Below the pieces are notes generated by a model. That model made no database searches. It had not been told where the DNA came from and saw only the letters and a list, made by a program, of their open reading frames with translations. A DNA stretch of 64,000 bases from sequence record OQ411014.1, one strand, 5' to 3'. The position numbers and the translations under genes were made by a program. The DNA comes from Escherichia phage EJP2. Of the stretch, positions 8,877 to 63,790 are shown piece after piece. Position 1 is the stretch's first letter, and every line of letters starts with the position of its first letter.

Positions 8877-8895
8877 TAACTATAAGGGTAATACA

Positions 8896-9108: not shown

Positions 9109-9298
9109 TTACGGGTGTAAATTATACCAAGCTCAGATTATAAGTACTGTAATAATAAAATGCAGTACTTTTAATTTGTACAGGTAATCCCTTAACATTT
9201 TCAAATAAAAAAATCAAGACCTATGCAAAATATTTTGTTGCACTAAAGGGTAGTAACCCTTAGCGGCTTTGAATACTCCCTATAAGAAAAAAAGGTAT

Positions 9299-9326
9299 TT
9301 GACTTTTTATCTGAATCGGATATAAT
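9299..9326 (+). promoter_or_regulatory. sigma70-like promoter heading the paralog array
   Basis: -35 TTGACT 9299-9304, 16-nt spacer, -10 TATAAT 9321-9326. Confidence 0.55.
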
Positions 9327-9372
9327 CTGTTCTATATTATATTTCACTTGTATTTTATCTCATGGAGTCCCT

Positions 9373-37998: not shown

Positions 37999-38013
37999 TA
38001 GGATATACAATTC

Positions 38014-39064: not shown

Positions 39065-39123
39065 CACCTATCTATAGCCATGATACTATATGTACATGGC
39101 TATTTCTATATGAAGGTACTATA

Positions 39124-39678: not shown

Positions 39679-40222
39679 TAAAGTTCAACACATATTGAAT
39701 TGTATGCAGAAGAAAGTTCACGTTCAGAATGATGTACTTGATATGCAAGTATATACAATTCTATCTTCAGAAGATGGCGTGTTTAGTTCAACTATTCGAT
39801 GCCGCAATAAAAATAGCGGTTCCTTTACTATTATGCTAAGGAAGAAGACTGAAATGATTACTGCTCCTAGTTCAGTACTGGGACAAAACGACACATACAA
39901 TACAGTTTACACTTCTCTTGCAATGAAGATGGCAATCTTCTGTACGCATGGTAATCCCCTACACATTGTTCGTGGGGATAGTACAATAGGTGATGATGTC
40001 GTTCAGGATTTGAGTGACGAAGGTTTCTTTCGCTTGTTATTGGCAGTTGACCCGAAGTATAATATCGATATAGATGGGTACAAGCAGGTTCTTGAAATGA
40101 TTTATGCATTCGAAGAAGTAGTACCTGAAGATTGGACTATTGTTATTAGCTCACCATTAGATAATTTACATTCAATAGATGTTGATTCTATCTATTCAGT
40201 ACTGAAGGATGTCGTAGTATGA
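39671..40222 (+). CDS. FQ-motif paralog, VHDFD subfamily
   Basis: Motif DEGFFRLLLAVD. Confidence 0.6.
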   Translation: MRDKVQHILNCMQKKVHVQNDVLDMQVYTILSSEDGVFSSTIRCRNKNSGSFTIMLRKKTEMITAPSSVLGQNDTYNTVYTSLAMKMAIFCTHGNPLHIVRGDSTIGDDVVQDLSDEGFFRLLLAVDPKYNIDIDGYKQVLEMIYAFEEVVPEDWTIVISSPLDNLHSIDVDSIYSVLKDVVV

Positions 40223-40788
40223 ATGCCGCAGAGTTTGTTAGAGCACTTGTTGGTTTAGCTAAAGTGAAAACTTATAGAGGAAATATCACTAAATCAAATT
40301 CGCATTTTGTTCCACGTAATGGTCGTGAACATCTATTCGTTGATTCATTACTCATCAAGGGTATCGATGCATATGAAGAAATATACATTTCTATAGATAT
40401 GTGTGATGGATTCTTGAATTCCATTGCAGTTCATACAAGAAATAGATATACTCATTTCTCTATGTACAGAAAAACGGCATACACAGAGTATGATAAGTAC
40501 GCAATGGAAGAAACCTCCCCAGGGCGTTTCCTTATGCTTTTTCACAATGAAATTACCGAGCGTGATTTAATCATGAATCACAAGGGTGAATTTATTGTGC
40601 ACATGGACAATGAAAGTGAAGTGTTCAGTACTTTATTAGTACATAACTTCGATATAGAAAAGTACAGAGAAATTCATGAAACCTATAAGTGCATTGATGA
40701 ACTTAAAACTGACCTCTCATTCAGTACATATGATACTAATTGTGGTCTGAATTTCGCAGCACTATATCAAATTATATGGAAGGCATAA
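40219..40788 (+). CDS. FQ-motif paralog, VHDFD subfamily
   Basis: Motif ESEVFSTLLVHNFD; ATGA overlap. Confidence 0.65.
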   Translation: MNAAEFVRALVGLAKVKTYRGNITKSNSHFVPRNGREHLFVDSLLIKGIDAYEEIYISIDMCDGFLNSIAVHTRNRYTHFSMYRKTAYTEYDKYAMEETSPGRFLMLFHNEITERDLIMNHKGEFIVHMDNESEVFSTLLVHNFDIEKYREIHETYKCIDELKTDLSFSTYDTNCGLNFAALYQIIWKA

Positions 40789-41309
40789 TGACTGCACTAA
40801 ATGATTTCATGACTCTCAGTACTGAAATAGTATCTTCTACAAAGGGAGAAATCACAATCCCCCGTGATGATGTATATATTATACTAACACCAGGAATAGC
40901 AGAGTCCATAAAAGTATACGAAAATAATGATTCTTTACAAGTACTGTACATGCCACAAGATTATCTTTTTGTAAATTCTGATTTTACTTTACATCAATTT
41001 CCTACGTATAGTAATTTTCAACAACGTTTCCCAAGTGATAAAACAAAAGAAATAAAATACGTACAGTACGATAATAGTTTTAAAAGTCGTACTCATTTTA
41101 TCGCTTTAGAAACTGAAGAAGATATATTCAATGCTATGATAGTACATTCATTTGATATAAACGCAGCACTAGAATTGATGAGTGTATTGACTGAAGTACC
41201 GGAAGATGTAACAGGTATTATTACTATAAGAACTAAGTACAATGAAGAATTGTTACTAAAGTGCAACAGTATGATGCGAGATTATATTAGTAATAAGGAA
41301 AACACATGA
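40788..41309 (+). CDS. FQ-motif paralog, VHDFD subfamily
   Basis: Motif EEDIFNAMIVHSFD; ATG 40788 (TAATG overlap) preferred over TTG 40740. Confidence 0.6.
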   Translation: MTALNDFMTLSTEIVSSTKGEITIPRDDVYIILTPGIAESIKVYENNDSLQVLYMPQDYLFVNSDFTLHQFPTYSNFQQRFPSDKTKEIKYVQYDNSFKSRTHFIALETEEDIFNAMIVHSFDINAALELMSVLTEVPEDVTGIITIRTKYNEELLLKCNSMMRDYISNKENT

Positions 41310-41836
41310 CAGTACTGAATGATTTTCTTAGAGATAGTAAGTACATTATTGATAATATTGCTGAAGAAATATCTATACCATCAATGGATGAGTTGATGAT
41401 GATATCAATGGACCCTGATGGTGGGTTGGTAAAAGTATATTACGATTTTGAACTGCACGTAATGTTCATGAAAAATCATTATGAACACGCTTCTGATATG
41501 TTGACACTTTATGATTTTGGGACGCATAAAAATTACCAACAACGTTTACCAGCAAACAAATCAAAGGATATGAAACTAAGTGTTTACAATTCTGCTGGTG
41601 TTACTATTCCGACTAAGATTTCTCTTGGTTCTGAAGAGGGAATCTTTTCTGCGGAATTAGTACATGATTCCAGTACTGAAGAAGCACTTGAAGTTATGCA
41701 AGTAATTTCTGAAGTACCTGACAGTACCAAAGGAATACTTACTATAAGAAATAAGTACAACGAACGATTACTTATAAAATGTAATGTGTTATTAGAACAA
41801 TATATACATGGAGTACTGAATGCAAATATGGTATAA
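41306..41836 (+). CDS. FQ-motif paralog, VHDFD subfamily
   Basis: Motif EEGIFSAELVHDS; ATGA overlap. Confidence 0.65.
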   Translation: MTVLNDFLRDSKYIIDNIAEEISIPSMDELMMISMDPDGGLVKVYYDFELHVMFMKNHYEHASDMLTLYDFGTHKNYQQRLPANKSKDMKLSVYNSAGVTIPTKISLGSEEGIFSAELVHDSSTEEALEVMQVISEVPDSTKGILTIRNKYNERLLIKCNVLLEQYIHGVLNANMV

Positions 41837-42113
41837 TGTAGTACAGAAGGATTGGGATGATAATGAAAAGACAGGGATGCGTTTCATTTCTGTTATCATT
41901 TCGAATGAAACTCGTTATGTTCTACGAGCGGATAAGAATGATGGCGTATGGGAATCATCTTTGTATCCAATGGGTTACAAATATTCTTTAGATGATGTTG
42001 CAAGTCTAGCTGATTCTATGATAGACTCAGTAAAGATTATGAAGTTCCTTGAACGTCCAGAGCTAACAACGGCTGATGATGTACAGGAATTTTTGGCGAC
42101 TTTACAAGGGTAA
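41820..42113 (+). CDS. hypothetical protein (97 aa)
   Basis: ORF track; 17-nt overlap. Confidence 0.5.
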   Translation: MQIWYNVVQKDWDDNEKTGMRFISVIISNETRYVLRADKNDGVWESSLYPMGYKYSLDDVASLADSMIDSVKIMKFLERPELTTADDVQEFLATLQG

Positions 42114-42115
42114 TT

Positions 42116-42634
42116 ATGAAACTTTCTGACTTCATTGCACGCAAAGATTCGTTCAAAAATGGCGTTTTTCATCAAGTAGAAGGTACTGACTTTACATATA
42201 TCAGTACTAGTATTGGATTGGGAGAAGCATCGAGTATCGTATCTTTTTATACAAAAGAAACACTTGCTATATGTGATTTTGTATTTTCAACTAAACATTA
42301 TAATACCACAGACAATGCAATTATGTTCGATGCAAACTCAGTGAATGATGCTTGGTGTGTATATTTTTCTTATCCAAATACAAATGAAAATATAGTATTA
42401 TTCTTGGATGATTCAGAAGATAACGAGCCACCAGTACTGGTAGATATCTCATCAGAAGCGGATATCTTCACTAAAGCAGTAGCATTCGATATAAATTGTG
42501 ATGGTATTGAAGAGTACATTTCGATTTCCAAAGCAATCGAAAAAATTGCCAAGGATTTGGGATTACCGGAATTTACTCTAGAACTTCGTCACAATAAACT
42601 GAAGGAATTTCTTGAGATATTTGAACTATGCTAA
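42116..42634 (+). CDS. FQ-motif paralog family protein
   Basis: Motif EADIFTKAVAFD. Confidence 0.6.
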   Translation: MKLSDFIARKDSFKNGVFHQVEGTDFTYISTSIGLGEASSIVSFYTKETLAICDFVFSTKHYNTTDNAIMFDANSVNDAWCVYFSYPNTNENIVLFLDDSEDNEPPVLVDISSEADIFTKAVAFDINCDGIEEYISISKAIEKIAKDLGLPEFTLELRHNKLKEFLEIFELC

Positions 42635-42873
42635 TAATTGACAATTTAGACATACCTGGTGAATTCGAAGTACTCGAAGGGATTAGTATGAGTACGTTCG
42701 TAATAAAAAGTACTGAAGCGTGGGTGAAAAAACACTTGACTGAATTAGGGTTATCCGATACACTACACTTCTTTAGTTACAGTACTGGAGATTTAGTTTT
42801 AGAATCGACAAGAGCGAGGATTACGAGTTTAAGTTCTAAGCGATTTTATGTTGAATTTATGGAAGGAGAATGA
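42628..42873 (+). CDS. hypothetical protein (81 aa)
   Basis: ORF track; 7-nt overlap. Confidence 0.5.
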   Translation: MLIIDNLDIPGEFEVLEGISMSTFVIKSTEAWVKKHLTELGLSDTLHFFSYSTGDLVLESTRARITSLSSKRFYVEFMEGE

Positions 42874-43442
42874 CAATGATCAATAGTAATACTTATATGC
42901 GTTACCTACGTATGGGCGTTTCTTTAGTTCCAGTTCGTGGAAAAGATTCAGTAGACCAAGAGTTCGCATATGCGATGCCTATTGATGGTGTACAGTACGT
43001 ACTGAACGATGGTGGTATGTACGAAGATACAAATGAGTCCGAAGACATGTCTGATATGCTTCAGAACTTATTAGCAGTAGTCAATAGTGACCGTCATGAT
43101 AAAGTAAAACGCGTTACTACGTTCCTGGAAAAGAATCTACACAAAACTGTTTGGTGTGAGATTGCTTCTGGACCACAACTGGGTTTGCTATTCGGGAACG
43201 CAGATGGTACAATTTGTCAATTAGCGATGGATTTCCGTTCTCCAGAGCAGTTCCAAGAGTACCGTGCATCTATCATCGAACACTTTGCAGCACTCGGTCT
43301 TGACGAATCTAAGATTCCAGAAATTAGTCCAATGGATACATTTGTACTGATTCCTGAGAGTCCAGCATTCGAAGCACTATTCAGTACTTTCCAGTGCTTA
43401 GGGATTGAAGTAAGTCCAGCAGATGTAGATGATGAAGAATAA
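42870..43442 (+). CDS. hypothetical protein (190 aa)
   Basis: ORF track; ATGA overlap. Confidence 0.6.
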   Translation: MTMINSNTYMRYLRMGVSLVPVRGKDSVDQEFAYAMPIDGVQYVLNDGGMYEDTNESEDMSDMLQNLLAVVNSDRHDKVKRVTTFLEKNLHKTVWCEIASGPQLGLLFGNADGTICQLAMDFRSPEQFQEYRASIIEHFAALGLDESKIPEISPMDTFVLIPESPAFEALFSTFQCLGIEVSPADVDDEE

Positions 43443-43520
43443 TTAGTACTGTATATGTATACACCTTTACGATAAAGTCTTAAATATCTGAAGGTGTATA
43501 TTGTCATAGGAGGAAAAGTT

Positions 43521-43724
43521 ATGAAATATTCATTGATTCGTTTAGGATTATTTGTTACAGTAGTCTTAATGGTTGTGATTGGTTCAGTACTGACACAGTT
43601 ATACCCTGCGTTTATTTTACTCGCTGGGATTTTTGGTTCAGTACTGATTGGGCTGGTGGGTTGGGCTTTGCAGCTTACCATCGATGCGGAATTAGAAAAG
43701 AGGATTAAAGATAAAGATGAATGA
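43521..43724 (+). CDS. small membrane protein, two predicted TM helices (67 aa)
   Basis: ATG 43521 after RBS AGGAGGAAAAG; listed ORF begins at GTG 43494. Confidence 0.55.
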   Translation: MKYSLIRLGLFVTVVLMVVIGSVLTQLYPAFILLAGIFGSVLIGLVGWALQLTIDAELEKRIKDKDE

Positions 43725-43890
43725 TAAAGGTGAAGAGGAAGTCTTCTGTACTGCGTGCAATCTGTACGTACAACCTGAATACAGTTCGTACTCATGTATT
43801 TCACAGTACGGTTCATCAGTGTTCTGTAAAGAACTCTGTCCTATTTGTTATAAACAATTTCGGGAATTTTTAGTCGATGCAGACATTTGA
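43717..43890 (+). CDS. small Cys-rich zinc-ribbon-like protein (57 aa)
   Basis: ATG 43717 overlapping upstream stop; CxxC...CxxC (CTAC, CPIC); read directly. Confidence 0.4.
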   Translation: MNDKGEEEVFCTACNLYVQPEYSSYSCISQYGSSVFCKELCPICYKQFREFLVDADI

Positions 43891-44566
43891 TAATTCAATC
43901 AACATCAGTACTGAACTATTAAAAGTACTAAAAGTGATTTATAGTTTCAGTACTGAAGAGTTGTTGAAAGTACTACCAGAGAGTGTATCTAAACGAGAAA
44001 ACGAATATAAGTGCGTTTTTGATATACAACAAGATGTACAATTTCAAGTTCAAATTAACTACAAAGACGATTTGAATTATCGCAGTACTAATATTTCCAT
44101 TCTTGATGTGCGTCGCGGCGTAACAATGAATGGGACAATTCCATGTATCTTAGCTTTAGGTACATACGCAGCGAATAAATCAGAACCATCTATCATTTGT
44201 AACTACTCCCAAAGTAAAGAATTTATGGTTCGATATCATTCATTGACCGAAAATCCTGCTTATACAAATGTCAGTACTGATGGCAATTCACTTAGAATGA
44301 ATCGAATCAAGTACTACGAGATTGATGATATTTTTGATGAAGGTGCAGTATTCCAACATTCAATTATGCATGAGTTCGACCCTAATAGTATTCTGTTATT
44401 ACAGAAGATGGTCACTGTTGGGGATTACATCAGTACTAAATGTAATTCCAATAAAATCCTTGTCTCGGCTGATGAAGATAAGTTAGATGGTCTGTTGGAT
44501 TCACTTCTAAAGATTGATGTTGTTAGTAAATTCATTTCCTTATATGAAGGTACAGAATGGTCATAG
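43877..44566 (+). CDS. FQ-motif paralog family protein
   Basis: Motif DEGAVFQHSIMHEFD. Confidence 0.65.
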   Translation: MQTFDNSINISTELLKVLKVIYSFSTEELLKVLPESVSKRENEYKCVFDIQQDVQFQVQINYKDDLNYRSTNISILDVRRGVTMNGTIPCILALGTYAANKSEPSIICNYSQSKEFMVRYHSLTENPAYTNVSTDGNSLRMNRIKYYEIDDIFDEGAVFQHSIMHEFDPNSILLLQKMVTVGDYISTKCNSNKILVSADEDKLDGLLDSLLKIDVVSKFISLYEGTEWS

Positions 44567-45180
44567 CCAATAAAGGTTTAGAAATCATTGAAATTGCACC
44601 GGATGAAGTTCAAATGGAAGTTGAAGTAATGTATCCGTGCAACATTGAACAGTACTGCAAACAGGGATTACAGTACTTAGAAGAAATGCAAGTACTACTT
44701 GATTCTCCTGATTGTATCGATAATTATACCAAATACACAACTGTAACCAGAACTACACCAGAATTGGAATTGATTGGTATTCGATATTGCAACACACGTC
44801 TCCCATCAATTATTACTACAGTTAAATTTACTGAAGTAATGTTGCTGGAAACATTTAGATGGCCTAAAACGTTACAAAGTCATTTCAATTCAATACGTTT
44901 TGGTGAAGATGAATACATTATCATGTGTGAAGATCCTAAGTCCTACAAATATGTAGTGATGGTCGAGCAAGATGAAGTATGCACAATTGAAGATATCAGA
45001 GACGAAAGTTCTTTATTTCAGGCTTCATTAGTTTCTGAATTAGATCCGTGTATACAGGAGTATCTCATCAAACATCACGAACTGTACTTGCGTGCAATTA
45101 GTAATGAGAACAAAGAGATTACTACTCTATGTACTACTCTGGCAGGTGGTGATTACTACGCAGAGAGGCAGTACTTATGA
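44557..45180 (+). CDS. FQ-motif paralog family protein
   Basis: Motif DESSLFQASLVSELD. Confidence 0.65.
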   Translation: MVIANKGLEIIEIAPDEVQMEVEVMYPCNIEQYCKQGLQYLEEMQVLLDSPDCIDNYTKYTTVTRTTPELELIGIRYCNTRLPSIITTVKFTEVMLLETFRWPKTLQSHFNSIRFGEDEYIIMCEDPKSYKYVVMVEQDEVCTIEDIRDESSLFQASLVSELDPCIQEYLIKHHELYLRAISNENKEITTLCTTLAGGDYYAERQYL

Positions 45181-45716
45181 ATGCCTTAGAACATATTGTA
45201 AAATACTTCAGTACTGCACAACCTAATGGGTATGCGTTGTTTCATGCAATGTTTCATTATGAACGAGAACCACTAGCAATTGAGCGTTATTATCAAAACG
45301 AGAAAACGCACTTCTTGATTCATGTTCGGGTCGGTTCAAAGATTGAAACTCTAAAAATGTACTATAATCACAAAGAATATCCGAAGAAAATTATAATGAT
45401 TCAATCGTCACCTACAAATAGTTTTATACATTTGATGAGTAATTATAAGACACAATTTTTAGATGATGCCAATAGTAATGTGTGTATTATGGGCGTTGAG
45501 GGAAAGGAATATAACTTCAATGCATTTGATGAATGTGCATTATTCCAGGCCAGTACTGTATGTGATATTGATGTGGATTTCATTTCAAAATCTATGTTGA
45601 CATTACAGAATATTTCGGATAGTATTAGTAGTGTTGTTACCTTACAAGGAACCAAAGGTGTAATCGATGAACTTTGTAATCTCAGGATTGATTCGATTAT
45701 GCGATTAGCTTCATAG
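45177..45716 (+). CDS. FQ-motif paralog family protein
   Basis: Motif DECALFQASTVCDID; ATGA overlap. Confidence 0.65.
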   Translation: MNALEHIVKYFSTAQPNGYALFHAMFHYEREPLAIERYYQNEKTHFLIHVRVGSKIETLKMYYNHKEYPKKIIMIQSSPTNSFIHLMSNYKTQFLDDANSNVCIMGVEGKEYNFNAFDECALFQASTVCDIDVDFISKSMLTLQNISDSISSVVTLQGTKGVIDELCNLRIDSIMRLAS

Positions 45717-45771
45717 TAATAGATTCAAAAAAATTTATAAAAGTGCAAATAATCACAAGGAGTGTGAATAT

Positions 45772-46506
45772 ATGTTAGATCGTATAAAATTTGCCCAGGA
45801 GATGGCGAATGAGCTAAACAAATCAAATTTCCAAACTGTATCACCTATTATGGCTGAGTATGCTACTGCATATGCAACAGATGGAGTTCAGTGTGGACAG
45901 GCGAATATGTTAGCGGACGTGTACAGTACTGTGCAGAGTAAGCAATTCTCTGTTAAGACGTACAAAGATAAATTCGTATCTTCATTCATGAAGGGTGAGA
46001 TTGCAGAAGATCGTGAGTTCACAGATCCTATCATTGAGCGTAGGATTTCTGGGGTGGCGAATCCGAATGCTGATCCATCGTTAGTCTTTGAGGAAGTACT
46101 GAATGATATTCGAGACAATGAACGCAGAAGTCTAAACCACTACGGTATTAATTCCACTGGAACAGTACTGTTAGGATTCAGCGAAGATGATGATTATTTT
46201 TACTTTCGTCTAACTGAATATGATTATGTGTATGATGCTCCCGCTTCAGTACAAGAGAAGACCTTCACAGAACGTAGTAAAAACTACCTAAAACATACAG
46301 GAAATCGTTGCGGAATCGAATGCTACAACACTGAAGGTGTTATGGTGTACGAATGGGTTCACCCGAACAATCAGGCTTATACACGCTGTCTGAAGAAGCG
46401 GTACGACCTACGTGATGCTGATTCTATGTATTTCAAAATCAAGAAGCAGAAGTACACCAGACCTGATGATAATGCATTGTTGGATATGGTTAGTATTCAC
46501 TTCTAA
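45772..46506 (+). CDS. hypothetical protein (244 aa)
   Basis: ORF track; RBS AAGGAGTG. Confidence 0.65.
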   Translation: MLDRIKFAQEMANELNKSNFQTVSPIMAEYATAYATDGVQCGQANMLADVYSTVQSKQFSVKTYKDKFVSSFMKGEIAEDREFTDPIIERRISGVANPNADPSLVFEEVLNDIRDNERRSLNHYGINSTGTVLLGFSEDDDYFYFRLTEYDYVYDAPASVQEKTFTERSKNYLKHTGNRCGIECYNTEGVMVYEWVHPNNQAYTRCLKKRYDLRDADSMYFKIKKQKYTRPDDNALLDMVSIHF

Positions 46507-46515
46507 ATCAATTAT

Positions 46516-46545
46516 GCAGTACTGCGATTGTAGTACTGCTTTTTT
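46516..46545 (+). terminator. rho-independent terminator
   Basis: Stem GCAGTACT..AGTACTGC followed by TTTTTT; stem built from the AGTACT palindrome. Confidence 0.6.
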
Positions 46546-46556
46546 CTGGAGATGCT

Positions 46557-47111
46557 ATGAATAATCTTGAGTTCGTTAAACACTTGGCTAATAAAGTTGA
46601 TACAATCGCACAGAAACATATTGACACTCAAAGTTCAATACCTATAAAATTAGCGATTCCTCATGATAATATGGAACTGTTCGATAGATTCTTTTCTGTT
46701 CGAGGCCGCCACGATAAAGATAGATATCTTTTACTCGACACTGACCGGAATGCTTTTCAGTACTCAACACCTACGTTTCCTGGAATTTTCATGAAAGTGT
46801 CTGATGGATTGTACCTTACGTACTCACCACCAGATATATCACAGACTATGATTGGATTGGATTCTAGGGTATTACTATTTCAGCCACGCAATCCAAGTGA
46901 TGTATATGATCCGTATGAATTCTTGACTGAAGAAATGCACTTCCAGGCATCTACAGTACTGGATATTCCGAGCATAGAAACTCTAAGAGAAATGCTTGAT
47001 ATTGTTGAGTTTTTGATTGAAAGTGAATTCAAATTTAGATGTTCAATGGACTACGATGATTACCAGAGTATTCAGATTGGTCGTTTTTATAATTACGCAA
47101 TGCAGGAATAA
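46557..47111 (+). CDS. FQ-motif paralog family protein
   Basis: Motif TEEMHFQASTVLD; RBS GGAGATG. Confidence 0.65.
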   Translation: MNNLEFVKHLANKVDTIAQKHIDTQSSIPIKLAIPHDNMELFDRFFSVRGRHDKDRYLLLDTDRNAFQYSTPTFPGIFMKVSDGLYLTYSPPDISQTMIGLDSRVLLFQPRNPSDVYDPYEFLTEEMHFQASTVLDIPSIETLREMLDIVEFLIESEFKFRCSMDYDDYQSIQIGRFYNYAMQE

Positions 47112-47115
47112 CCAA

Positions 47116-47727
47116 ATGAAGAATCTAGATAAATTTGAAGACCTTATCAGTACTGCAAAAGCGTTCGGGTATTATAATTTCATCCAACGCTTTGGCCTCA
47201 AAGAAGAAAGTAACCGTTTCTGTAAAGTATATCGTGGTATCTGTACTGAAGATTCGGAGTATCAGTTCTTGATTGGAACTATGCGTTCTAGTGGTGGGAT
47301 TACATACATCGTTGAAGATAATAAAACAGGTGAGTACTTGAACATGTTCGCTCTTCGGGCAGAAGGTGAATCTGAACTTACTGCGATGTTTAAAGACTGG
47401 ACACGACTATCATACAAATACGATAAGTTCAACATCTACAACTACGAAACCAAGAAGATGGAAGTTGTACCGAACATTGACATGTCTGAAGATGAACATT
47501 TTCAGTTCATGCTATTGCATGATATTCCAGATTATGATACAGTACAGTCAGTACTGAAATATCATAAAGAAGTTTCACCAATGCTCAAAGAACATAAGCT
47601 ATTCAATATCATCACGTACACGATGCCTGATTTTGATTTCACAAAGATGAAAATCAAACCTGAAGTAATTGACACGTGTATGGATTTGATACCTGAATCA
47701 TCTTTATACAAACACAAGGATATATAA
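47116..47727 (+). CDS. FQ-motif paralog family protein
   Basis: Motif SEDEHFQFMLLHD; ATG 47116 with RBS AGGAAT preferred over listed 47017. Confidence 0.6.
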   Translation: MKNLDKFEDLISTAKAFGYYNFIQRFGLKEESNRFCKVYRGICTEDSEYQFLIGTMRSSGGITYIVEDNKTGEYLNMFALRAEGESELTAMFKDWTRLSYKYDKFNIYNYETKKMEVVPNIDMSEDEHFQFMLLHDIPDYDTVQSVLKYHKEVSPMLKEHKLFNIITYTMPDFDFTKMKIKPEVIDTCMDLIPESSLYKHKDI

Positions 47728-48866
47728 TGACTACAATGCGTGAACTATATGACGATTTGAATGCATTAGTATCTGATGCTTTCTATCACAAAGATTTCGT
47801 TAGTAAAGGCTCTGGTACGTACCGGATTTTCTCGTACCGTCTAGCGAGTGCTGCTGACTTCGAAGAACGTAATGCCCTTGAGTCACGTGGTATTATGTTC
47901 GAGATTGATGCAGATACTAAAGAGCCAATTCGTATTGCTTCTCGGACTATGAAGAAGTTTTTCAATGCAGGGGAAACCCAAGAATTACAGTTCAAGAAGG
48001 ACGTACCATTCAGTACTATCAAGTGCGTAATGCCTAAGTTGGATGGTTCTGTTATTGCAACCTTCATGGACAATGATGGAATTATTCGTACTAAATCAAA
48101 CTCTTCGTTGGAGTCTGAGCACGCGTATTACAGTACTGAAATGATTCACGCCAATGATAAGTTACACGATGCAATCATTTGTGCTGAAGCTGCTGGTTAT
48201 ACTGTAATTATGGAATTTACTTCACCTGAGTACCGGATTATTCTTCCTTACCAGAAAGATGAACTAACTGTATTGCGTATCATTCATCGTGAAAGTGGTG
48301 AAAGCATTATGGGTTCTGACTTGAAGGAGAAGTTCCCAGTACTGTATGAGTTTTCGGTATTTGGTGATAAAGACATTCATGAATCATTCCCTGTTCGCAG
48401 TACTTTAGTACAGAGTATTGCTGCTGTTCGTGAAATGGAAGAGATTGAGGGATATGTTGTAGTACTACAAGATGGCACTACATTCAAGCTCAAGACGGAT
48501 TGGTATTGCAATTTACATTTTACCAAAGATAGTATTATCATTGATTCTCGACTATTCAAGGCAGTACTGGATGGTAGTTCAGATGATTTACGTCAATTGT
48601 TTGAAAATGATGAATATGCACTAAAAAAAGTCGAAAAAATGGAAAATTTGATTTTTTTGTGCTATAATAAGTTAGAAGAGGATGTGACTACTTTTTACGA
48701 AAAGTACAAGCACCTTGATCAAAAAACGTATGCTATGAAGGTGTTGGGTGAATTATCGAAAGATATGAACCGACAAGGACTTGCATTCAACTTGTACAAT
48801 GGTAAACCTGTTGATTACAAAGAAGTACTACTAAAGTACATGAAGAACGTGTTAGAAGGATTCTGA
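47727..48866 (+). CDS. rnlA: RNA ligase 1 (T4 RnlA-like)
   Basis: Nucleotidyltransferase motif I KxDG in MPKLDGS; N-terminal YRIFSY, RGIMFE, RIASRTMKKFFN recalled as matching T4 Rnl1; 379 aa. Confidence 0.85.
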   Translation: MTTMRELYDDLNALVSDAFYHKDFVSKGSGTYRIFSYRLASAADFEERNALESRGIMFEIDADTKEPIRIASRTMKKFFNAGETQELQFKKDVPFSTIKCVMPKLDGSVIATFMDNDGIIRTKSNSSLESEHAYYSTEMIHANDKLHDAIICAEAAGYTVIMEFTSPEYRIILPYQKDELTVLRIIHRESGESIMGSDLKEKFPVLYEFSVFGDKDIHESFPVRSTLVQSIAAVREMEEIEGYVVVLQDGTTFKLKTDWYCNLHFTKDSIIIDSRLFKAVLDGSSDDLRQLFENDEYALKKVEKMENLIFLCYNKLEEDVTTFYEKYKHLDQKTYAMKVLGELSKDMNRQGLAFNLYNGKPVDYKEVLLKYMKNVLEGF

Positions 48867-49360: not shown

Positions 49361-49582
49361 ATGAAAGTTCAAATTATGCATAGTGTTGTCCAGGACATGT
49401 CTGTGGTGAAGTTTAGTACTCTAAGTGATTATTTCCGTTGTATCGAATTTATGGATACTAACGGTATACTGTGGGAACCAGTGAAGTACAGTTCCAGAAA
49501 CGATACCGCTAGTATTCGCGTTGATGAGGTAGCGTTGAATAAAATTTGTAAACGATATGGAGTTCAGAAATGCCTAAACTAG
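49361..49582 (+). CDS. hypothetical protein (73 aa)
   Basis: ORF track; RBS AGGAGAT. Confidence 0.6.
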   Translation: MKVQIMHSVVQDMSVVKFSTLSDYFRCIEFMDTNGILWEPVKYSSRNDTASIRVDEVALNKICKRYGVQKCLN

Positions 49583-50499
49583 TACTGACAGTTGGATTGC
49601 CTGGGTGCGGGAAAAGTACTTGGGCTACAGAAGAAGTAAAGAAATCCAAACGCAAAACTGTCATTCTAAATCGTGATGATATTCGTGAAACGATGTTCGG
49701 TGGTAACTGGGAATATCGTTATAGTAACGAGAACGAAAAATACGTCCAGAATACTCTCGCTTTTCAAGCCCAAGAAGCAGTGAAAAATGGCTGGGATATT
49801 ATCGTTGCAAATACTAATCTCAACCCAAAAGAACAAAACATGTGGAGTACTTTTGCAAAGGAGAATTCATATACCTTAGTACATCAGGACTTCTTCAAGG
49901 AGTTCAAGAAAGGTAAATCCTTTGTGCATGATTACTTCGCAATCAATGCTTTCGTGAAACATTGTAAAGAACGTAACCTAAAACGTTTGAAGTCTGTTCA
50001 AGAAAGTGTAATTGACCAAATGGCAACTTCGTACTATTACAGTACTGTTACGCCTCCACCAGTGATTGAAGGTGATGGTCTAAAATATTACATCGTAGAT
50101 ATTGACGGAACTCTAGCACATATGTTAGATTATCGTTCACCCTATGATGAAACAAAAGTTCATCTTGATGTACCTGATGAGTTCGTAATTTCAGTACTGC
50201 ACGCTCTTGTAAAAGACCCGTCAGTACGTATTATCCTCATGAGTGGTCGTCACGTCACCTGTAAAGAGCTAACACAAGAATGGTTAGCGAAGCATTCAGT
50301 ACCGTATCATGAGCTTCATATGCGTGCTGCGGACGATGTACGAGGGGACGATGTGGTGAAATATGAGTTGTATATGCAAGAAGTATACAACAAAAACAAA
50401 CGAGTCCAAGTTGTGTTCGATGACCGTCAAAAAGTTGTGAACACATGGCGTGAGTTGCTTGGCCTCAAAACCTTCCAGGTACAGCCTGGAAATTTCTAG
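49570..50499 (+). CDS. pseT: polynucleotide 5'-kinase/3'-phosphatase (T4 Pnk-like)
   Basis: Walker A GLPGCGKST at N-terminus; HAD phosphatase motif DIDGT; length and C-terminus like T4 Pnk. Confidence 0.9.
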   Translation: MPKLVLTVGLPGCGKSTWATEEVKKSKRKTVILNRDDIRETMFGGNWEYRYSNENEKYVQNTLAFQAQEAVKNGWDIIVANTNLNPKEQNMWSTFAKENSYTLVHQDFFKEFKKGKSFVHDYFAINAFVKHCKERNLKRLKSVQESVIDQMATSYYYSTVTPPPVIEGDGLKYYIVDIDGTLAHMLDYRSPYDETKVHLDVPDEFVISVLHALVKDPSVRIILMSGRHVTCKELTQEWLAKHSVPYHELHMRAADDVRGDDVVKYELYMQEVYNKNKRVQVVFDDRQKVVNTWRELLGLKTFQVQPGNF

Positions 50500-53965: not shown

Positions 53966-55381
53966 ATGAGCGTACTTTCTATTTTGACTGAACTAAAAGA
54001 CAATGCATCTATTCTGGTCAAAAAAGACATTCTCAATAAAAACAAGGACGATGCAGTACTGCAACGTGTTCTCAAACTAGCTTTAGACCCAGGAATTGTA
54101 AGTGGTTATAAGAAGCTACCGAATCCCTTCGTTAGTGAAACTAAGTACACACTCAACGAAGCACTAAATCAGCTTGATGATATCTACACTCGTAAGTACA
54201 CTGGTCATGCTGGACGTGACCACATTGCACAAATCCTAGGTTCAGTCACTGAAGATGACCGTGAAGTTATCCGTCGAGTACTGACTAAGGACTTAGAGTG
54301 TGGTGCTAGTGATAAGATTGTGAACGATGTATTTGGTAAAGGTTTTGTCAAAGATGAACCGTATATGCGTTGTTCATTGATTGATCATAAAACTGCAAAA
54401 AACATCAACTTCGATGGTTATGGTTATGCTGTCTCTGAAGTAAAAATGGACGGCACTTACCTGAACCACGTAGTCATCAACAATGCACTAACATCCTCAT
54501 CCAGAAATGGTAAACTATATGATTTTCTTGGTTGTCGTGACTTAGAAATGAGTGGGGTTGCTGGAATCATTCAGAAAAATGATCCACGTTTCAGTTCTGG
54601 TGTAGTTTTCATGGGAGAAGGTTTAGTACTAGACACTGATGGCACTATTCTTCCACGAACAACTGGTAATGGGATCATCCAAAAAGCGGGTAAAGATTCC
54701 ATAACATCGTTCGAAGCTATGCGGGTAGTCTTTGTATTATGGGACGTTGTTCCATATGATGCATTCTGTAATGGTTTTTGGGATGTGAAACGCAAAGAGC
54801 GTCGTGAAATACTTGAAAGTGCAATCAACGAATTCGATAGTGAATTTGTACGTATGGTTGAGTACCGTAAAGTAAAAAATCTAAAAGAAGCATTTGATTA
54901 TAACACTGAACTCATGAACAAGGGTGAAGAAGGTTCAGTACTGAAATGTGAAGATGGTGTTTGGAAATCACACACTTCTCCTAAGCAATTGAAAATGAAA
55001 CTGAAAATGCAAATTGATTTACGCATTGTAGGATTCAATGAAGGGGATAAGAAACGTAAAGGCTGTTTGGGTTCTTTACAACTTGAAAGTGATTGTGGTA
55101 CATTGAAAGTGAATGTAGGTACTGGTATCAAAGAGAAAGATGCCGAATGGACATTCAAAAGTATCTGGGAAAAACGTTTTGAACTATTGAATAAGATTGT
55201 CACTGTTGAGGCAAATGAAATCGTAGTTGATAAACGTACTGGAGAACCATCACTATTTTTGCCAGTGTTTGTTGAATTTAGATTTGACAAGGACACATGT
55301 GACACGTATACTCGTATCTTAGAAATTCGAGAAAGTGCTGTTGAGGTATTTGCAAACAGTATTGTTAGTTCTTTATTGTAA
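53966..55381 (+). CDS. ATP-dependent DNA ligase (T4 gp30-like)
   Basis: Adenylation motif KxDG in SEVKMDGTY; LTKDLECGAS and C-terminal LKVNVGTGIKEKD / LFLPVFVEFRFDKD recalled as matching T4 DNA ligase; 471 aa. Confidence 0.9.
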   Translation: MSVLSILTELKDNASILVKKDILNKNKDDAVLQRVLKLALDPGIVSGYKKLPNPFVSETKYTLNEALNQLDDIYTRKYTGHAGRDHIAQILGSVTEDDREVIRRVLTKDLECGASDKIVNDVFGKGFVKDEPYMRCSLIDHKTAKNINFDGYGYAVSEVKMDGTYLNHVVINNALTSSSRNGKLYDFLGCRDLEMSGVAGIIQKNDPRFSSGVVFMGEGLVLDTDGTILPRTTGNGIIQKAGKDSITSFEAMRVVFVLWDVVPYDAFCNGFWDVKRKERREILESAINEFDSEFVRMVEYRKVKNLKEAFDYNTELMNKGEEGSVLKCEDGVWKSHTSPKQLKMKLKMQIDLRIVGFNEGDKKRKGCLGSLQLESDCGTLKVNVGTGIKEKDAEWTFKSIWEKRFELLNKIVTVEANEIVVDKRTGEPSLFLPVFVEFRFDKDTCDTYTRILEIRESAVEVFANSIVSSLL

Positions 55382-55451
55382 GATAACATTCGTTCCAGTA
55401 CTGAATACGTTATAAAATTTCTAAAATGTTTACCTAATATTAGAAGGGCAA

Positions 55452-55856
55452 ATGAAACCAATATCTAAGGCGACGTTGATGATGTACAAGGATGTACTGT
55501 ACATCACAGCCAAATCAACAAGCATTCAATCTCCAGGGATGGGTCTGTTCTCGGTGCAACGAAGATCAATTTTGTATTATGATTTTTTTGCAGAATTTGA
55601 TTTTGTTGATGCGTCGCTGACGATACATAAAACACGACACGGTTCAGTAAACGATACATTTGATAATTGTCTTGACAACTGCCAGATTGATGGTGTAAAG
55701 TATGTCCTATCAAACGGACTAAGAGCACCATCTCTTGCAGATTTCAGATGTTCTCAAGTTTTCTATGCAGAAGTGCTTGACGAGAACAATAAGTTGAATT
55801 ACAATACTCTTCTTGGTGCACTTCTGGTTGAACAGAATCGCTGGAAAGATATCTAA
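55452..55856 (+). CDS. hypothetical protein (134 aa)
   Basis: ORF track; RBS AGAAGGG. Confidence 0.6.
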   Translation: MKPISKATLMMYKDVLYITAKSTSIQSPGMGLFSVQRRSILYYDFFAEFDFVDASLTIHKTRHGSVNDTFDNCLDNCQIDGVKYVLSNGLRAPSLADFRCSQVFYAEVLDENNKLNYNTLLGALLVEQNRWKDI

Positions 55857-55863: not shown

Positions 55864-55891
55864 TTGACAATCTAGAATAATGTGGTATAAT
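55864..55891 (+). promoter_or_regulatory. sigma70-like promoter
   Basis: -35 TTGACA 55864-55869, 16 nt, -10 TATAAT 55886-55891. Confidence 0.55.
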
Positions 55892-55941
55892 AGTTGCACT
55901 TAGTACGAAATTCTAATTGATAATCGAAAAGGAAATAAAAT

Positions 55942-56634
55942 ATGTTTCATAACTCTATCAAAGCCAATGCATACGAAGAACCAACCAACATGACTATTCC
56001 AATCGTTGTTGAACAGACTCATAATGGTGAGCGTTCTTATGATTTACCATCTCGTTTGATGAACTCTCGTATCATCATGGTTGATACTGATTTCAACGAC
56101 CAGATGGCATATGTAATCAAAATGCAGTTGCTGTGGCTTGATAGTCAAAGTGCAGACCCAATCACTATGTACATCAACTCCCCTGGTGGTTCAGTACATG
56201 CTGGTTTAGGTATTGCTGATGTAGTTGCGAACCTTCGCTCTCCAGTACGCACTATCGTTATGGGTATGGCTGCATCGATGGGTTGTTACATGCAAAGTAC
56301 TATGGGTACTCCTGGTCTGCGTCTAGCAGGTAAACGTGCACAAATCATGGCACACCAAGTATCTTCTGGTACACAAGGTCTGATTCTAGACCAAGAGATT
56401 TCTCTGAATCATAGTAAGCGTTTGAACAAACTCTTGACTGAAGAGATTGCTGAAGCAGTAGGTATGCCGATTGAACAATTCCTTATTGACTGTAACCGCG
56501 ATTTGTGGTTAAATGCTGAAGAAGCATTGAACTACGGCACTAAAGGTTTCATCGATGGTATCTATCTGGGTAAACAAAACGAACAAGGCCAACTACTTGT
56601 CCAACGTCGTGGTGGTGTTGAGGAATGGGTGTAA
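55942..56634 (+). CDS. clpP: ClpP-like serine protease
   Basis: ClpP signatures INSPGGSVHAGLGI and active-site Ser context GMAASMG; His in MAHQ. Confidence 0.8.
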   Translation: MFHNSIKANAYEEPTNMTIPIVVEQTHNGERSYDLPSRLMNSRIIMVDTDFNDQMAYVIKMQLLWLDSQSADPITMYINSPGGSVHAGLGIADVVANLRSPVRTIVMGMAASMGCYMQSTMGTPGLRLAGKRAQIMAHQVSSGTQGLILDQEISLNHSKRLNKLLTEEIAEAVGMPIEQFLIDCNRDLWLNAEEALNYGTKGFIDGIYLGKQNEQGQLLVQRRGGVEEWV

Positions 56635-56921
56635 TGAGTAAAGTTCTAGTAAGGGGTGGCAACGCCCCTGATAATGCAGAAGTGCTGGATGATGCAGAAT
56701 TCATTCGTCTATGTTACAGTACTATCAAAGATAAGACTGTAGAGCTAGAGAACAGTACTGAAAGTTCTCAAGTCCTAGATGCATTATCAGATATTCTCGA
56801 ATTGAGTATGTCTATCATTCAAAAAGAAAACATTACTGCACAGAATTTATTTGCACACGCAATGAATCGTCGTAATGTTGAAGGTAGTTTTCTGGATAAA
56901 AAAGCAATCACTAAGGAGTAA
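56625..56921 (+). CDS. hypothetical protein (98 aa)
   Basis: ORF track; overlaps upstream stop. Confidence 0.55.
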   Translation: MGVMSKVLVRGGNAPDNAEVLDDAEFIRLCYSTIKDKTVELENSTESSQVLDALSDILELSMSIIQKENITAQNLFAHAMNRRNVEGSFLDKKAITKE

Positions 56922-56927: not shown

Positions 56928-57371
56928 ATGAACGAACAACAACAGCGACAACAAGGTTACGATTTCTACTTCACCAACCAGTCCCTAACTGTAGAACAAC
57001 TAAAGCAACAGAGTACGTTCTTCCGTTTAGGTTATCGTGCAGCACAAGCTGATGTAGCGAAGAAAGCTAACAAAGCATTCCCAACTACCCTATATGATGT
57101 TCCACAGCGTGCAGAGCGTTTCAACGCTACATGGAACGACATTCTAGCAGCTACACGTAAACCACGTATGCGTAAGCTCCACGCTGACCATATGGCTCCA
57201 GTACTGTATACTCTAATCAAACACGTAGAGCTACAGAAAGATGAAATCTATCGCTATGCTGATGTTGTACGTCTAGTCGAAGAAGGTTTCGATAAGATTC
57301 TTCAAATCGGTGTTGATGAAGGTATCTTGACAGCACACGATTGTAAGCAGTATAATTACGTTCCTAAGTGA
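56928..57371 (+). CDS. hypothetical protein (147 aa)
   Basis: ORF track; RBS AAGGAGTAA. Confidence 0.65.
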   Translation: MNEQQQRQQGYDFYFTNQSLTVEQLKQQSTFFRLGYRAAQADVAKKANKAFPTTLYDVPQRAERFNATWNDILAATRKPRMRKLHADHMAPVLYTLIKHVELQKDEIYRYADVVRLVEEGFDKILQIGVDEGILTAHDCKQYNYVPK

Positions 57372-57378: not shown

Positions 57379-57403
57379 AGGCCACTTAATTGTGGCCTTT
57401 TTA
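57379..57403 (+). terminator. rho-independent terminator
   Basis: Stem AGGCCAC..GTGGCCT followed by TTTTT. Confidence 0.65.
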
Positions 57404-61081: not shown

Positions 61082-61238
61082 ACTATATCCTTTTATAAAA
61101 AACTGGTCATAAAATGACCTACATAATATTTATGTTACTTGTTCATTTTTTGTACAGCTAATGCTAAATAAATTTATATTGACACTGATAAGCAAACATG
61201 CTAGAGTAATCATCTTACACATTCATTGTAGAGGGTAT

Positions 61239-61853
61239 ATGAAAAAAATTCCATTAGAATTGTTACAGATATTTCTTATCTGGTTGCTATGTACTGTTCC
61301 CAGTTCAGCAGAAAGTTTGTCCAGTACTATCTTTAGAGATAAAGAGAATATTGTTCATTTTGGTGCTCCAGTTTCATTCGAGGCATATAGCAAATTACTG
61401 AAAATGTATAAGATAAAACCATTTTCTGAAATTAGACTCACCAGTAATGGTGGAGAATATGATGCTGGTATGAAGATTGCTCACTTAGTTTACACCAATG
61501 ACATATCAGTCTTTGTTCCAAAGTACTGTGCAAGTGCATGTACATTTATATTTTTTGGAGCTAGGGTTGAGCACCGTGACATTGCACCAACGGCAATGTT
61601 GGGATTACATAATGTGTCGTTTGGTATGAACAACTCAACGGGTGAAGACGCGAATAACTCGTCGATAACAGTCAAGGAGGCACTTGATTTTGCACAAGAA
61701 GCAGTTGTAAGATCAGGAATGATGATTTCATTCTATTCTGCGAATGGGATACCAAGTGATGTACTACTTCAAGTATCACAAACATATGGTCAAGGTATCA
61801 TAAATGTGCAACGGGCTGACTTAGTTCGTTGGGGTGCAATACAAGCGAAATAA
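61239..61853 (+). CDS. putative secreted ClpP/S49-like peptidase-fold protein
   Basis: Signal-peptide-like N-terminus MKKIPLELLQIFLIWLLCTVPSSAES; TSNGGEYDAGMKIA and CASACTF loosely resemble ClpP motifs; ATG 61239 with RBS GAGGGT. Confidence 0.45.
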   Translation: MKKIPLELLQIFLIWLLCTVPSSAESLSSTIFRDKENIVHFGAPVSFEAYSKLLKMYKIKPFSEIRLTSNGGEYDAGMKIAHLVYTNDISVFVPKYCASACTFIFFGARVEHRDIAPTAMLGLHNVSFGMNNSTGEDANNSSITVKEALDFAQEAVVRSGMMISFYSANGIPSDVLLQVSQTYGQGIINVQRADLVRWGAIQAK

Positions 61854-62716: not shown

Positions 62717-63790
62717 ATGAAAAACGAAAACGTATATGTATACATCGGACGCTTCCAGCCAGCACATAAAGGCCACGAAGCAGTACTTGAAAATGCAATC
62801 AAAAAAGCTGACCGTGTTGTTATTCTAGTGGGTAGTGCTGAACAAGCTCGTTCCCCTAAGAACCCGTTCACCTTTGAAGAACGCCAAAAAGTACTGGACG
62901 GTATCACAACTCGTCTTGCACAAGATGAATGGGCGAAAGGTCGCCGTGTGATGATCGACATCCTACCTGTACATGACTTCGTATACAACAACCAGAAATG
63001 GCTCATGGAAGTTCAAGAACAAGTTCGTTCCTGCACTAAAAGTGAAAACATTACTCTAACTGGTTGTCGTAAACATGGCGATGATAGTACTTTCTATCTT
63101 GAGTTCTTCCCTCAGTGGAATCAAGATTTCATTACAGAAACTACACAAGAAGATGTTGGTATCAATGCCACTCAACTACGTAACCAATTCTTCAGTACTA
63201 AACAAGTACCTGAACAAAATGTACTTACTCCTGAAACTGTAGAGTTCCTTGAGAAGTTCAGCGTAGAAAAGAAAGATGTACTAGATTACCTAGTGAAAGA
63301 ACATGCTTTTACTACAAAATATAAAGCAGACATGAAGAAACAACTACCATTTGACACAATCCCATTCCTGACTGGTGATAGTCTGATTGTCTGTGCAGGT
63401 CATGTTCTTGTAGGTATTCGTCGCTCTGAACCAGGCAAAGGTCAGTACTGTCTACCTGGTGGGTTCTTCGATGCATGGAAAGATAAAGATCAAGTTGATA
63501 CTGCTTTACGTGAACTCAAAGAAGAAACCAAAATTGATGTACCAATGAATAAACTACGCGGTTCTATTGAACGTGTAGAAGAGTTTGGTGACTTTGACCG
63601 TGACCCACGCTGGCGTGTAATCACTAAGTGCATCTACATCAAACTTGACGGTACTAAACTACCTAAAGTAAAAGGCTCAGATGATCTCAAAGGTTGCTTC
63701 TGGATGCCTATGACTGAAATTGCTAAAAATCGTGCTAACTTCTTTGTTGATCACGTTTCCATCATTGACACGTTCTTAGGAATCCTGTAA
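62717..63790 (+). CDS. natV: bifunctional NMN adenylyltransferase / Nudix hydrolase (NadM-Nudix type)
   Basis: N-terminal HxGH motif in IGRFQPAHKGHEAV; C-terminal Nudix-box-like GGFFDAW..ALRELKEETKI; 357 aa; symbol by analogy with vibriophage KVP40 NatV. Confidence 0.8.
   Translation: MKNENVYVYIGRFQPAHKGHEAVLENAIKKADRVVILVGSAEQARSPKNPFTFEERQKVLDGITTRLAQDEWAKGRRVMIDILPVHDFVYNNQKWLMEVQEQVRSCTKSENITLTGCRKHGDDSTFYLEFFPQWNQDFITETTQEDVGINATQLRNQFFSTKQVPEQNVLTPETVEFLEKFSVEKKDVLDYLVKEHAFTTKYKADMKKQLPFDTIPFLTGDSLIVCAGHVLVGIRRSEPGKGQYCLPGGFFDAWKDKDQVDTALRELKEETKIDVPMNKLRGSIERVEEFGDFDRDPRWRVITKCIYIKLDGTKLPKVKGSDDLKGCFWMPMTEIAKNRANFFVDHVSIIDTFLGIL

Follow-up and report, generated by a model that had tools for sequence, protein, structure and literature searches.

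ClpP by itself cuts only peptides, and the degradation of proteins requires a hexameric unfoldase in addition. Clp-family genes have been reported in the giant phage Atu_ph07, with ClpA conserved in most RaK2-like phages (Attai et al. 2018), and ClpP has been described as a patchily distributed peptidase of jumbo phages that is likely directed against the host (Iyer et al. 2021). We found no functional study of a phage ClpP in the open-access literature searched. Here we report on a stretch of 64,000 nucleotides (nt) from Escherichia phage EJP2 (OQ411014.1; the whole stretch is referred to as the window), which carries a clpP gene at positions 55942-56634 on the + strand (230 amino acids [aa]; stop codon included in the coordinates). 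As judged from its sequence, the product is a true ClpP and not a ClpP-fold prohead protease. It adds one more ortholog to an already known, uncharacterised family of phage ClpPs, with members annotated in the GenBank records of dozens of phages and treated in the two papers cited above. The reading that we favour, and consider rather probable, is that the gene provides the active peptidase of a phage-borne ClpAP, with a phage ClpA as partner, and that it is transcribed from its own promoter by the host sigma-70 RNA polymerase at a time other than the late phase.

The match to the Pfam family CLP_protease (PF00574; MEROPS S14; cut-off 20.2 bits) covers profile positions 2-178 of 182 with 152 bits and an E-value of 2e-44. 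The NCBIfam models for cellular ClpP give 174 bits (PRK00277) and 167 bits (TIGR00493), whereas NF045542, the model for ClpP-related head-maturation proteases, gives 48.7 bits, a partial match that falls short of the cut-off of 120. The preliminary description of this stretch had set the protein apart from the prohead proteases as a ClpP-like protease, and these scores, which separate the two groups by model and not by tree, bear this out. In a search of the PDB all of the 60 matches listed are cellular or mitochondrial ClpP, and since the alignments start at residues 17-19 they cover the axial-pore loop (residues 18-38). Both cellular models also have equivalog cut-offs, and these are missed (174 vs 249 for PRK00277; 167 vs 308.6 for TIGR00493); the viral ClpPs are, to judge from such scores, a divergent clade and not orthologs of the host housekeeping gene. 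Identity is 35% to ClpP of E. coli and 41% to that of B. subtilis, and it reaches up to about 48% for the nearest cellular-type representatives in a library clustered at 50%. The phage-clade family (121 members) extends down to about 47% identity.

The residues needed for peptidase activity were compared in an alignment of 120 database relatives together with the E. coli, B. subtilis and S. aureus ClpPs. The serine context GMAASMG and the NSPGG loop singled out in the preliminary description are both present, the first within VMGMAASMG with the catalytic Ser112 (codon 56275-56277) and the second at residues 79-83 within YINSPGG (N79-G83). Together with His138 (codon 56353-56355) and Asp187 (codon 56500-56502), Ser112 aligns to E. 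coli S97/H122/D171, and the oxyanion hole G83/M113 aligns to G68/M98; all three codons are read on the + strand. In E. coli numbering, Ser97, His122, Gly68 and Met98 are invariant in the 121 phage-clade ClpPs, and Asp171 is kept in 120 of them. The segment TIPIVVEQTHNGERSYDLPSRL forms the axial-pore loop and can be aligned to a 23-residue reference segment, where P4, V6, E8, E14, R15, Y17 and D18 are each found in at least 111 of the 121 sequences.

Invariant catalytic residues are the pattern expected from selection for catalysis. This makes it hardly credible that the protein is a decoy, whether inactive or competitive, which would sequester the unfoldases of the host or poison the rings of its ClpP; for the decoy role that had been put forward earlier we see no support. 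Nothing specific speaks for it, beyond the fact that an altered docking pocket and an extra C-terminal tail could in principle change binding.

The phage clade has several traits of its own. Residues 1-17 form a propeptide-like extension (…PTNM, followed by TIP…), which in the clade ends with …N-x-[ST]-[IV]-P and resembles the propeptide junction of E. coli ClpP. HQVSSG replaces HQPLGG, there is a 3-residue insertion, and a conserved C-terminal tail of ~20 residues (…NEKGQxxVKRRxGVEEWV) occupies residues ~209-230 of the window protein (…NEQGQLLVQRRGGVEEWV). We considered a recent capture of the gene from the host and rejected it: its GC content at third codon positions (0.36) does not stand out from that of the neighbouring genes (0.28-0.39), and the protein is closer to B. 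subtilis than to E. coli ClpP.

The family nevertheless carries another name in the databases. The best PHROG for the window protein is phrog_94, "head maturation protease" (E = 7e-40), and the RefSeq orthologs in GAP32, CBB, 121Q, RaK2 and PBECO4 are labelled in the same way, as if this were the prohead protease of these phages. Such a function is very improbable and is already contradicted by the present data, given the sub-threshold score on the head-maturation model and the full-length match to cellular ClpP. The protein has no domain beyond its 230-aa ClpP and no fusion to a scaffold or capsid protein, and no capsid genes are found next to it: a Pfam scan of the 80 other + strand open reading frames (ORFs) of the window revealed no capsid, portal or terminase family, and no head-module genes lie within at least 8 kilobases (kb) downstream or 55 kb upstream of clpP in the window, nor within ±12 kb of clpP in Erwinia phage Hallingskeid and in phage A4. 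Genes of a structural type are limited in the window to two small ones on the minus strand near 60.7-62.6 kb, of which one has a Big_2 (Ig-like) domain.

In relatives, moreover, the head module contains a protease of the T4 gp21 type. In CBB this module (178-184 kb) comprises the portal gene CBB_252, the Peptidase_S77 gp21-type protease CBB_255 (181 kb) and the capsid gene CBB_257; the ClpP ortholog CBB_104 is located at 50 kb, about 130 kb away. The PA5oct, phAPEC6 and RaK2 papers likewise place a gp21-like protease within the head module, and the main text of the phAPEC6 paper, which tabulates virion proteins and among them the gp21-like protease, makes no mention of Clp. The T4 gp21-type family PF03420 (Peptidase_S77) is not among the Pfam matches of the window ClpP. 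Because a separate gp21-type protease sits in the head module of relatives, the RefSeq/PHROG label is probably wrong for this ClpP family. The preliminary description had named kinship with prohead proteases and capsid genes just beyond the window as what would refute it, and the separate head module of relatives speaks in its favour on this count. A promoter of the sigma-70 type, and not of the late type, in front of clpP argues in the same direction.

This promoter is located at 55864-55891 on the + strand, with TTGACA at 55864-55869, a spacer of 16 nt and TATAAT at 55886-55891. It matches the sigma-70 consensus at 12 of 12 positions and has an extended -10 element (TG at 55883-55884, in TGgTATAAT), with an A-rich stretch (aaaaaatgc) directly 5' of it; a Shine-Dalgarno-like AGGA (55930-55933) follows 8 nt 5' of the clpP ATG. 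Perfect TTGACA-N15-18-TATAAT sites number eight in the window where 0.16 are expected from shuffled sequences (maximum shuffle value 2), and seven of the eight belong to the coding strand, where an ATG follows each of them after ~35-60 nt. The excess of perfect sites and their placement before start codons make it very unlikely that the clpP promoter is a chance match, and the canonical promoter of the gene's own that had been noted at the outset is thus upheld. A sigma-70-like promoter with an extended -10 is found at the same position before clpP in Hallingskeid, A4 and 121Q (in the latter TGGACA-16 nt-TGaTATAAT), while CBB and GAP32 have no such promoter and their clpP abuts the upstream ORF.

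The gene that follows, orf95 (56634-56921, + strand), starts within the clpP stop codon (TAATG) and is preceded by GAGGA at 56620-56624, and its translation is therefore coupled to that of clpP; gene calls made independently on metagenomic contigs use the same start (10693-10980 in L009). Next comes orf147 (56928-57371, + strand), a conserved hypothetical gene (phrog_16190) and the last before an intrinsic-terminator-like hairpin at 57379-57403 (+ strand), in which AGGCCAC-TTAATT-GTGGCCT (57379-57398) precedes TTTTT. From this arrangement, clpP-orf95-orf147 probably form one transcription unit that ends at the hairpin. A second perfect promoter (TTGACA-18 nt-TATAAT, 57327-57356, + strand) is situated inside the end of orf147, ~20 nt before the hairpin at 57379-57398. 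Its transcripts would start shortly ahead of this hairpin, which might stabilise their 5' end as a stem-loop or attenuate expression of the metallophosphoesterase gene at 57421. A TGCACTT-type motif shared downstream of the promoters was also considered and discarded, as it is not enriched (117 matches vs 102 expected).

In RaK2-like phages, orf95 (phrog_16159) is conserved beside clpP. Its product belongs to no Pfam family and retrieved nothing in a profile search of the PDB. AlphaFold models the protein as a three-helix bundle, with a pLDDT (predicted local distance difference test) of 73 from the single sequence and of 89.9 from eight sequences. The best Foldseek matches in the PDB, MazG/HisE-type pyrophosphohydrolases, are non-significant (E ~0.4; TM [template modelling] score ~0.5). 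That orf95 encodes a ClpS-like adaptor, considered on account of its coupling to clpP, was rejected, since the predicted three-helix structure is not the α/β fold of ClpS and there was no Pfam or PDB match.

A peptidase of this kind needs an unfoldase. The scan of window ORFs disclosed no ClpS, and no AAA+, ClpS or ClpX family was found among the 80 further window ORFs or the clpP neighbours; any clpA lies outside the 64-kb window. A tblastn search with E. coli ClpA identified homologs of ~730-770 aa (41-45% identity, ~94% coverage) in GAP32, CBB, 121Q, PBECO4, RaK2, K64-1, Munch, fHe-Yen9-04 and Hallingskeid, a set that essentially coincides with the phages carrying this ClpP, and a full-length ClpA is present in every RaK2-like isolate among the ClpA matches listed. 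Records of ClpP and ClpA occur in similar numbers in phages of Escherichia (33/32), Klebsiella (10/11), Erwinia (8/8), Salmonella (8/10) and Pseudomonas (11/11). The enterobacterial RaK2-like phages have no strong ClpX homolog among the best-matching records listed. Other giant phages also pair ClpP with a Clp ATPase, which is ClpX in 15 Prevotella (Lak) records and ClpX plus ClpA in PA5oct-like phages.

The Hallingskeid ClpA aligns to E. coli ClpA across the N-domain region and both AAA+ rings. A comparison of 108 phage-clade ClpAs shows little or no variation in the D2 Walker motifs; in D1, the Walker A and B patterns GxxGVGKT and hhFIDExH are kept among the commonest variants listed, and the pore loops KYR and GYVG are retained in about 99 and about 98 sequences, respectively. 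By these motifs the phage ClpAs are working translocases. One of them, P0127, is 79% identical to Hallingskeid ClpA, has a Clp_N domain on record, and is encoded on contigs from two samples (SRR30782167 and SRR10875135) that also hold contigs with a ClpP identical to that of the window. Its context, a gp15-like tail gene, a gene for a 494-aa protein, clpA and a gene for a 3,344-aa structural protein, is the same as in isolates. Because P0127 shares samples with the identical ClpP and has the context seen in isolates, the source phage probably encodes a ClpA, separated from clpP by ~84-96 kb, the distance found in relatives. In these relatives (L005 at 5941-8238, L006-L008 and L015-L017) clpA stands alone on its strand between a gp15-like tail-completion cluster and a structural gene of ~3,300 codons.

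The clpA genes have promoters of a similar kind. That of RaK2 clpA (TTGACA…TGATATAAT) is sigma-70-like with an extended -10, and the corresponding sequences are TAGACA-16 nt-TGaTATAAT in 121Q and TTGAGA-18 nt-TGaTATAAT in a metagenomic contig. Thus, in 121Q both clpP and clpA follow T[GA]GACA-16 nt-TGaTATAAT. The pattern TAGACA-N15-19-TATAAT has only two matches in 18 loci (including about 35 kb of Asteriusvirus DNA), one before A4 clpP and the other before 121Q clpA. These promoter sequences suggest that clpP and clpA share a temporal class that is read by the host RNA polymerase.

According to the reading that we favour, clpP heads the unit clpP-orf95-orf147 and would be transcribed by the host sigma-70 RNA polymerase from a strong promoter of its own, and expression would be early or middle rather than together with the late structural genes, a timing suggested by the host-type promoter and the separate unit. 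The likeliest unfoldase partner would be the phage's own ClpA, and the phage-borne ClpAP would then unfold and destroy selected proteins in the infected cell; conceivable substrates are regulators or defence proteins of the host, or else early proteins of the phage.

Several observations weigh against a phage-borne ClpAP, and the first group concerns the docking of ClpA to ClpP. The ClpP-docking tripeptide is unusually variable in the phage ClpAs, with 23 variants in 108 sequences (IGM, MGM, IGV, IGA, LGM, LGL, MSM, IGG, MNM and others), compared with IGL in that of E. coli and IGF in the closest cellular relatives; in P0127 (IGA) and Hallingskeid (IGG) the usual hydrophobic third residue, which inserts into ClpP, is missing. 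The docking pocket of the window ClpP in turn shows the changes V44K, Y60T, F82N and L114G relative to cellular ClpPs. Positions 60 and 82 vary also among functional cellular ClpPs, whereas V44K and L114G/T are specific for the phage clade, and L23, I28, L48, Y62, I90 and M92 of the pocket are kept. Judged from these residues, the divergence may reflect an interface that has co-evolved and is possibly orthogonal, with the C-terminal tail perhaps contributing to it; it may also mean that the interaction is weak, or that ClpA does some of its work independently of ClpP. The tail is of interest in this respect because the long C-terminus of Listeria ClpP2 can fill the docking site and so tune the affinity for the unfoldase (PMC9035409).

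The same residues bear on whether the phage ClpP instead docks to host ClpX/ClpA and redirects them to substrates chosen by the phage, or mixes into host ClpP rings. The axial loop, which contacts the pore-2 loops of the unfoldase, is highly conserved, part of the docking pocket is kept, and loops as weak as the IGA/IGG of the nearest phage ClpAs would allow for a different partner. If clpP is expressed early from its host-type promoter, host ClpX and ClpA would also be active at that time. We still regard this co-option as unlikely. The phage-clade-specific pocket changes do not favour it, nor does an identity of only 35% to the ClpP of E. coli and of 41% to that of B. subtilis, which implies no recent enterobacterial capture, and the lineage keeps a ClpA of its own with intact ATPase and pore motifs that would be redundant if the host unfoldases sufficed. 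Since RaK2-like phages carry their own full-length ClpA, a phage-encoded partner is likelier than host ClpX/ClpA. The original interpretation, with its suggestion that the protein co-opts these host unfoldases for targeted proteolysis, is thereby retained in part: a true ClpP with its own promoter and a non-structural context stands, while its likelier partner is the phage ClpA, which is found in RaK2-like isolates and in the same samples.

The remaining points against a phage-borne ClpAP that acts in the infected cell relate to location and linkage. In relatives, clpA lies within the tail-gene module, far from clpP; P0127 is tied to the source phage by co-occurrence in samples and by conserved context, on separate contigs; and a single unique peptide of the ClpP ortholog CBB_104 (4.5% coverage) was reported from purified CBB virions. 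The first and the last of these would fit a phage ClpAP that serves virion morphogenesis, i.e., the quality control or processing of giant tail and other structural proteins, rather than an attack on the host. In Hallingskeid, GAP32, 121Q, RaK2, CBB and metagenomic contigs, clpA is found between genes for gp15-like tail completion and for a structural protein of ~3,340 aa, and Attai et al. (2018) propose a possible role in assembly. Against such a function, clpA is on the strand opposite to its structural neighbours and has a promoter of the sigma-70 rather than the late type, clpP sits among genes for ligase, RNA repair and nucleotide metabolism, one peptide at 4.5% coverage is weak evidence, and Clp goes unmentioned in the main text of the phAPEC6 paper (see above). 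Overall, we consider a role in morphogenesis quite improbable.

An extension of the phage-borne ClpAP reading, which we put forward as a speculation and regard as doubtful, is that RaK2-like phages carry an orthogonal ClpAP. Its docking would be rewired (ClpA tripeptides IGA/IGG/MGM, a remodelled ClpP pocket and the …KRRxGVEEWV tail, which may be a new docking or auto-inhibitory element) such that there is no cross-talk with host ClpX, ClpA or ClpP, and, expressed from early host-type promoters, it would remove specific host regulators or defence proteins.

The source phage is, on the basis of the following comparisons, a RaK2-like jumbo phage. Nucleotide matches of the window are short (~72-78%) and are to Erwinia phage Hallingskeid (366 kb) and Asteriusvirus phages. 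Hallingskeid is the nearest isolate, and its ClpP (CDS0577) is 81% identical to that of the window; the ClpPs of RaK2, K64-1, GAP32, CBB, 121Q, PBECO4, phAPEC6, Munch, fHe-Yen9-04 and XbC2 are 64-71% identical. Metagenomes from many samples contain contigs (90-125 kb) that encode an identical ClpP.

In the vicinity of clpP we identified genes for T4-type RNA ligase 1, polynucleotide kinase, ATP-dependent DNA ligase, metallophosphoesterase, dCMP deaminase and nicotinamide mononucleotide (NMN) adenylyltransferase/Nudix. A metabolic and non-structural context had been proposed from the window alone; the repair and nucleotide neighbours agree with this, and the non-structural context is conserved in relatives. 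In Hallingskeid, A4, 121Q, CBB and GAP32 the order is a gene for a 408-aa hypothetical protein, DNA ligase, (metallophosphoesterase), a small ORF, clpP, orf95 and orf147, followed further downstream by dCMP deaminase and, later, the NAD-salvage genes NMN adenylyltransferase (NMNAT)/Nudix and NAMPT, with other genes in between. The metallophosphoesterase gene is downstream of clpP in the window and upstream of it in A4, 121Q, CBB and GAP32.

Near-identical metagenomic variants of this phage (L010, L011 and L014, at 8423-9499) differ by an ORF of 358 aa with a CapR/DUF723 domain between the ligase gene and orf134, which is missing from the window (55381-55452) and from L009. Other ORFs with DUF723 or HNH domains vary near the NAMPT gene, and these variable ORFs look like mobile insertions of the homing-endonuclease type. 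The T4-type RNA ligase 1 (RNA_lig_T4_1 + T4_Rnl1_C) is encoded at 47727-48866 and the polynucleotide kinase/phosphatase (AAA_33 + HAD_PNKP) at 49570-50499, both on the + strand. In T4, the RNA ligase 1 and polynucleotide kinase pair repairs tRNA that has been cut by host anticodon nucleases. For the 80 + strand ORFs at 310-52729, otherwise unannotated, Pfam also gives one match each for an N6-adenine DNA methyltransferase of the Dam type (E = 1.4e-28) and for a protein kinase domain (E = 5.7e-06). Long runs of back-to-back and often overlapping ORFs of ~150-215 aa, with almost no Pfam matches, extend over ~9400-32400 and ~37500-47700 (+ strand). Within these one-strand runs, phrog_15629, phrog_12674 and phrog_13866 (function not assigned in PHROG) are each matched by three to four ORFs, which suggests that the runs are arrays of paralogs.

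The window also contains a second ORF of the ClpP/crotonase superfamily (61161-61853, + strand), the probable start of which is at 61239 according to metagenome gene calls (204 aa). The protein encoded by 61239-61853 has an N-terminus resembling a Sec signal peptide (MKKIPLELLQIFLIWLLCTVPSSA, followed by ES), matches phrog_26024 "protease" (E = 1.5e-43), and scores 19.9 bits with Pfam CLP_protease, just below the cut-off. A weak profile alignment places the Ser of CASAC and the His of GLHNV on the catalytic Ser and His of ClpP. Relatives hold one or two genes of this type (A4_467/469, 121Q gp473 and Hallingskeid CDS0568), and the product is possibly a secreted or periplasmic serine protease.

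Another feature of the window is the 8-base-pair (bp) palindrome CAGTACTG, which occurs 107 times in the 64 kb where 1.04 occurrences are expected from dinucleotide shuffles (maximum shuffle value 5); AGTACT has 301 occurrences. The first site is at 4-11 and the last at 63443-63450, and sites are found in coding as well as intergenic DNA, with none inside clpP. They occupy all three codon phases (10/40/43) and have weak TT…AAA flanks, and several are inside or beside perfect sigma-70 promoters (957, 1847, 4880 and 6496). The palindrome is frequent in every RaK2-like locus that was compared (L001-L019), e.g. in Hallingskeid with 30 sites in 24.9 kb, in A4 with 20 in 24.7 kb and in CBB with 16 in 47 kb. 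No relevant paper on the motif was found among the literature results listed.

Taken together, the evidence points to a true ClpP and corrects a widespread RefSeq/PHROG label, and the giant phages of the RaK2-like group appear to bring their own complete ATP-dependent protease (ClpA and ClpP). Should this protease act on defence or regulatory proteins of the host, it would be a proteolytic device for host takeover. The divergent docking loop and pocket could reveal how partner specificity is encoded in Clp systems; the practical value is modest.

Among known systems, the closest are the ClpP orthologs of RaK2-like phages (GAP32_103, CBB_104, 121Q gp464, those of RaK2, PBECO4 and phAPEC6, and Hallingskeid CDS0577). 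These are 64-81% identical over the full length and share the N-terminal extension, the C-terminal …KRRxGVEEWV tail and the synteny from ligase through clpP and dCMP deaminase to NMNAT/NAMPT; the window differs by a gap of 85 bp upstream of clpP that holds the perfect promoter, where CBB and GAP32 are almost gapless. The ClpP-related head maturation proteases (NF045542, NF045540; PHROG 94, 2976 and 133) have in common with the window protein the ClpP/crotonase superfamily and a Ser-containing core motif, but they are encoded in the head module, are frequently fused to scaffold or capsid proteins and lack the axial loop, whereas the window ClpP matches them partially and below threshold and has a non-structural context. 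With cellular ClpP (E. coli, B. subtilis and S. aureus; PDB 1TYF, 3KTI, 3QWD and others) the phage protein shares the fold family, the triad, the oxyanion hole, the axial-loop motif and the Asp/Arg oligomerisation-sensor residues; it differs in its identity of 35-41%, in HQV-SSG for HQP-LGG, in the pocket changes, in the 3-residue insertion and in the tail of ~20 residues. The presumed holoenzyme would have the layout of E. coli ClpAP, with a double-ring ClpA (N-domain, Walker A/B, KYR/GYVG) and a ClpP barrel, but its docking tripeptide is variable (IGA/IGG in the nearest relatives) and its genes are ~84-96 kb apart. Finally, the Clp sets of other giant phages (ClpP + ClpX in Lak phages; ClpP + ClpX + ClpA in PA5oct; seven Clp-family genes in Atu_ph07) likewise combine a phage ClpP with a phage unfoldase, and they differ from the enterobacterial RaK2-like phages, in which no strong ClpX is found among the best-matching records listed and in which ClpA is the unfoldase that accompanies ClpP.

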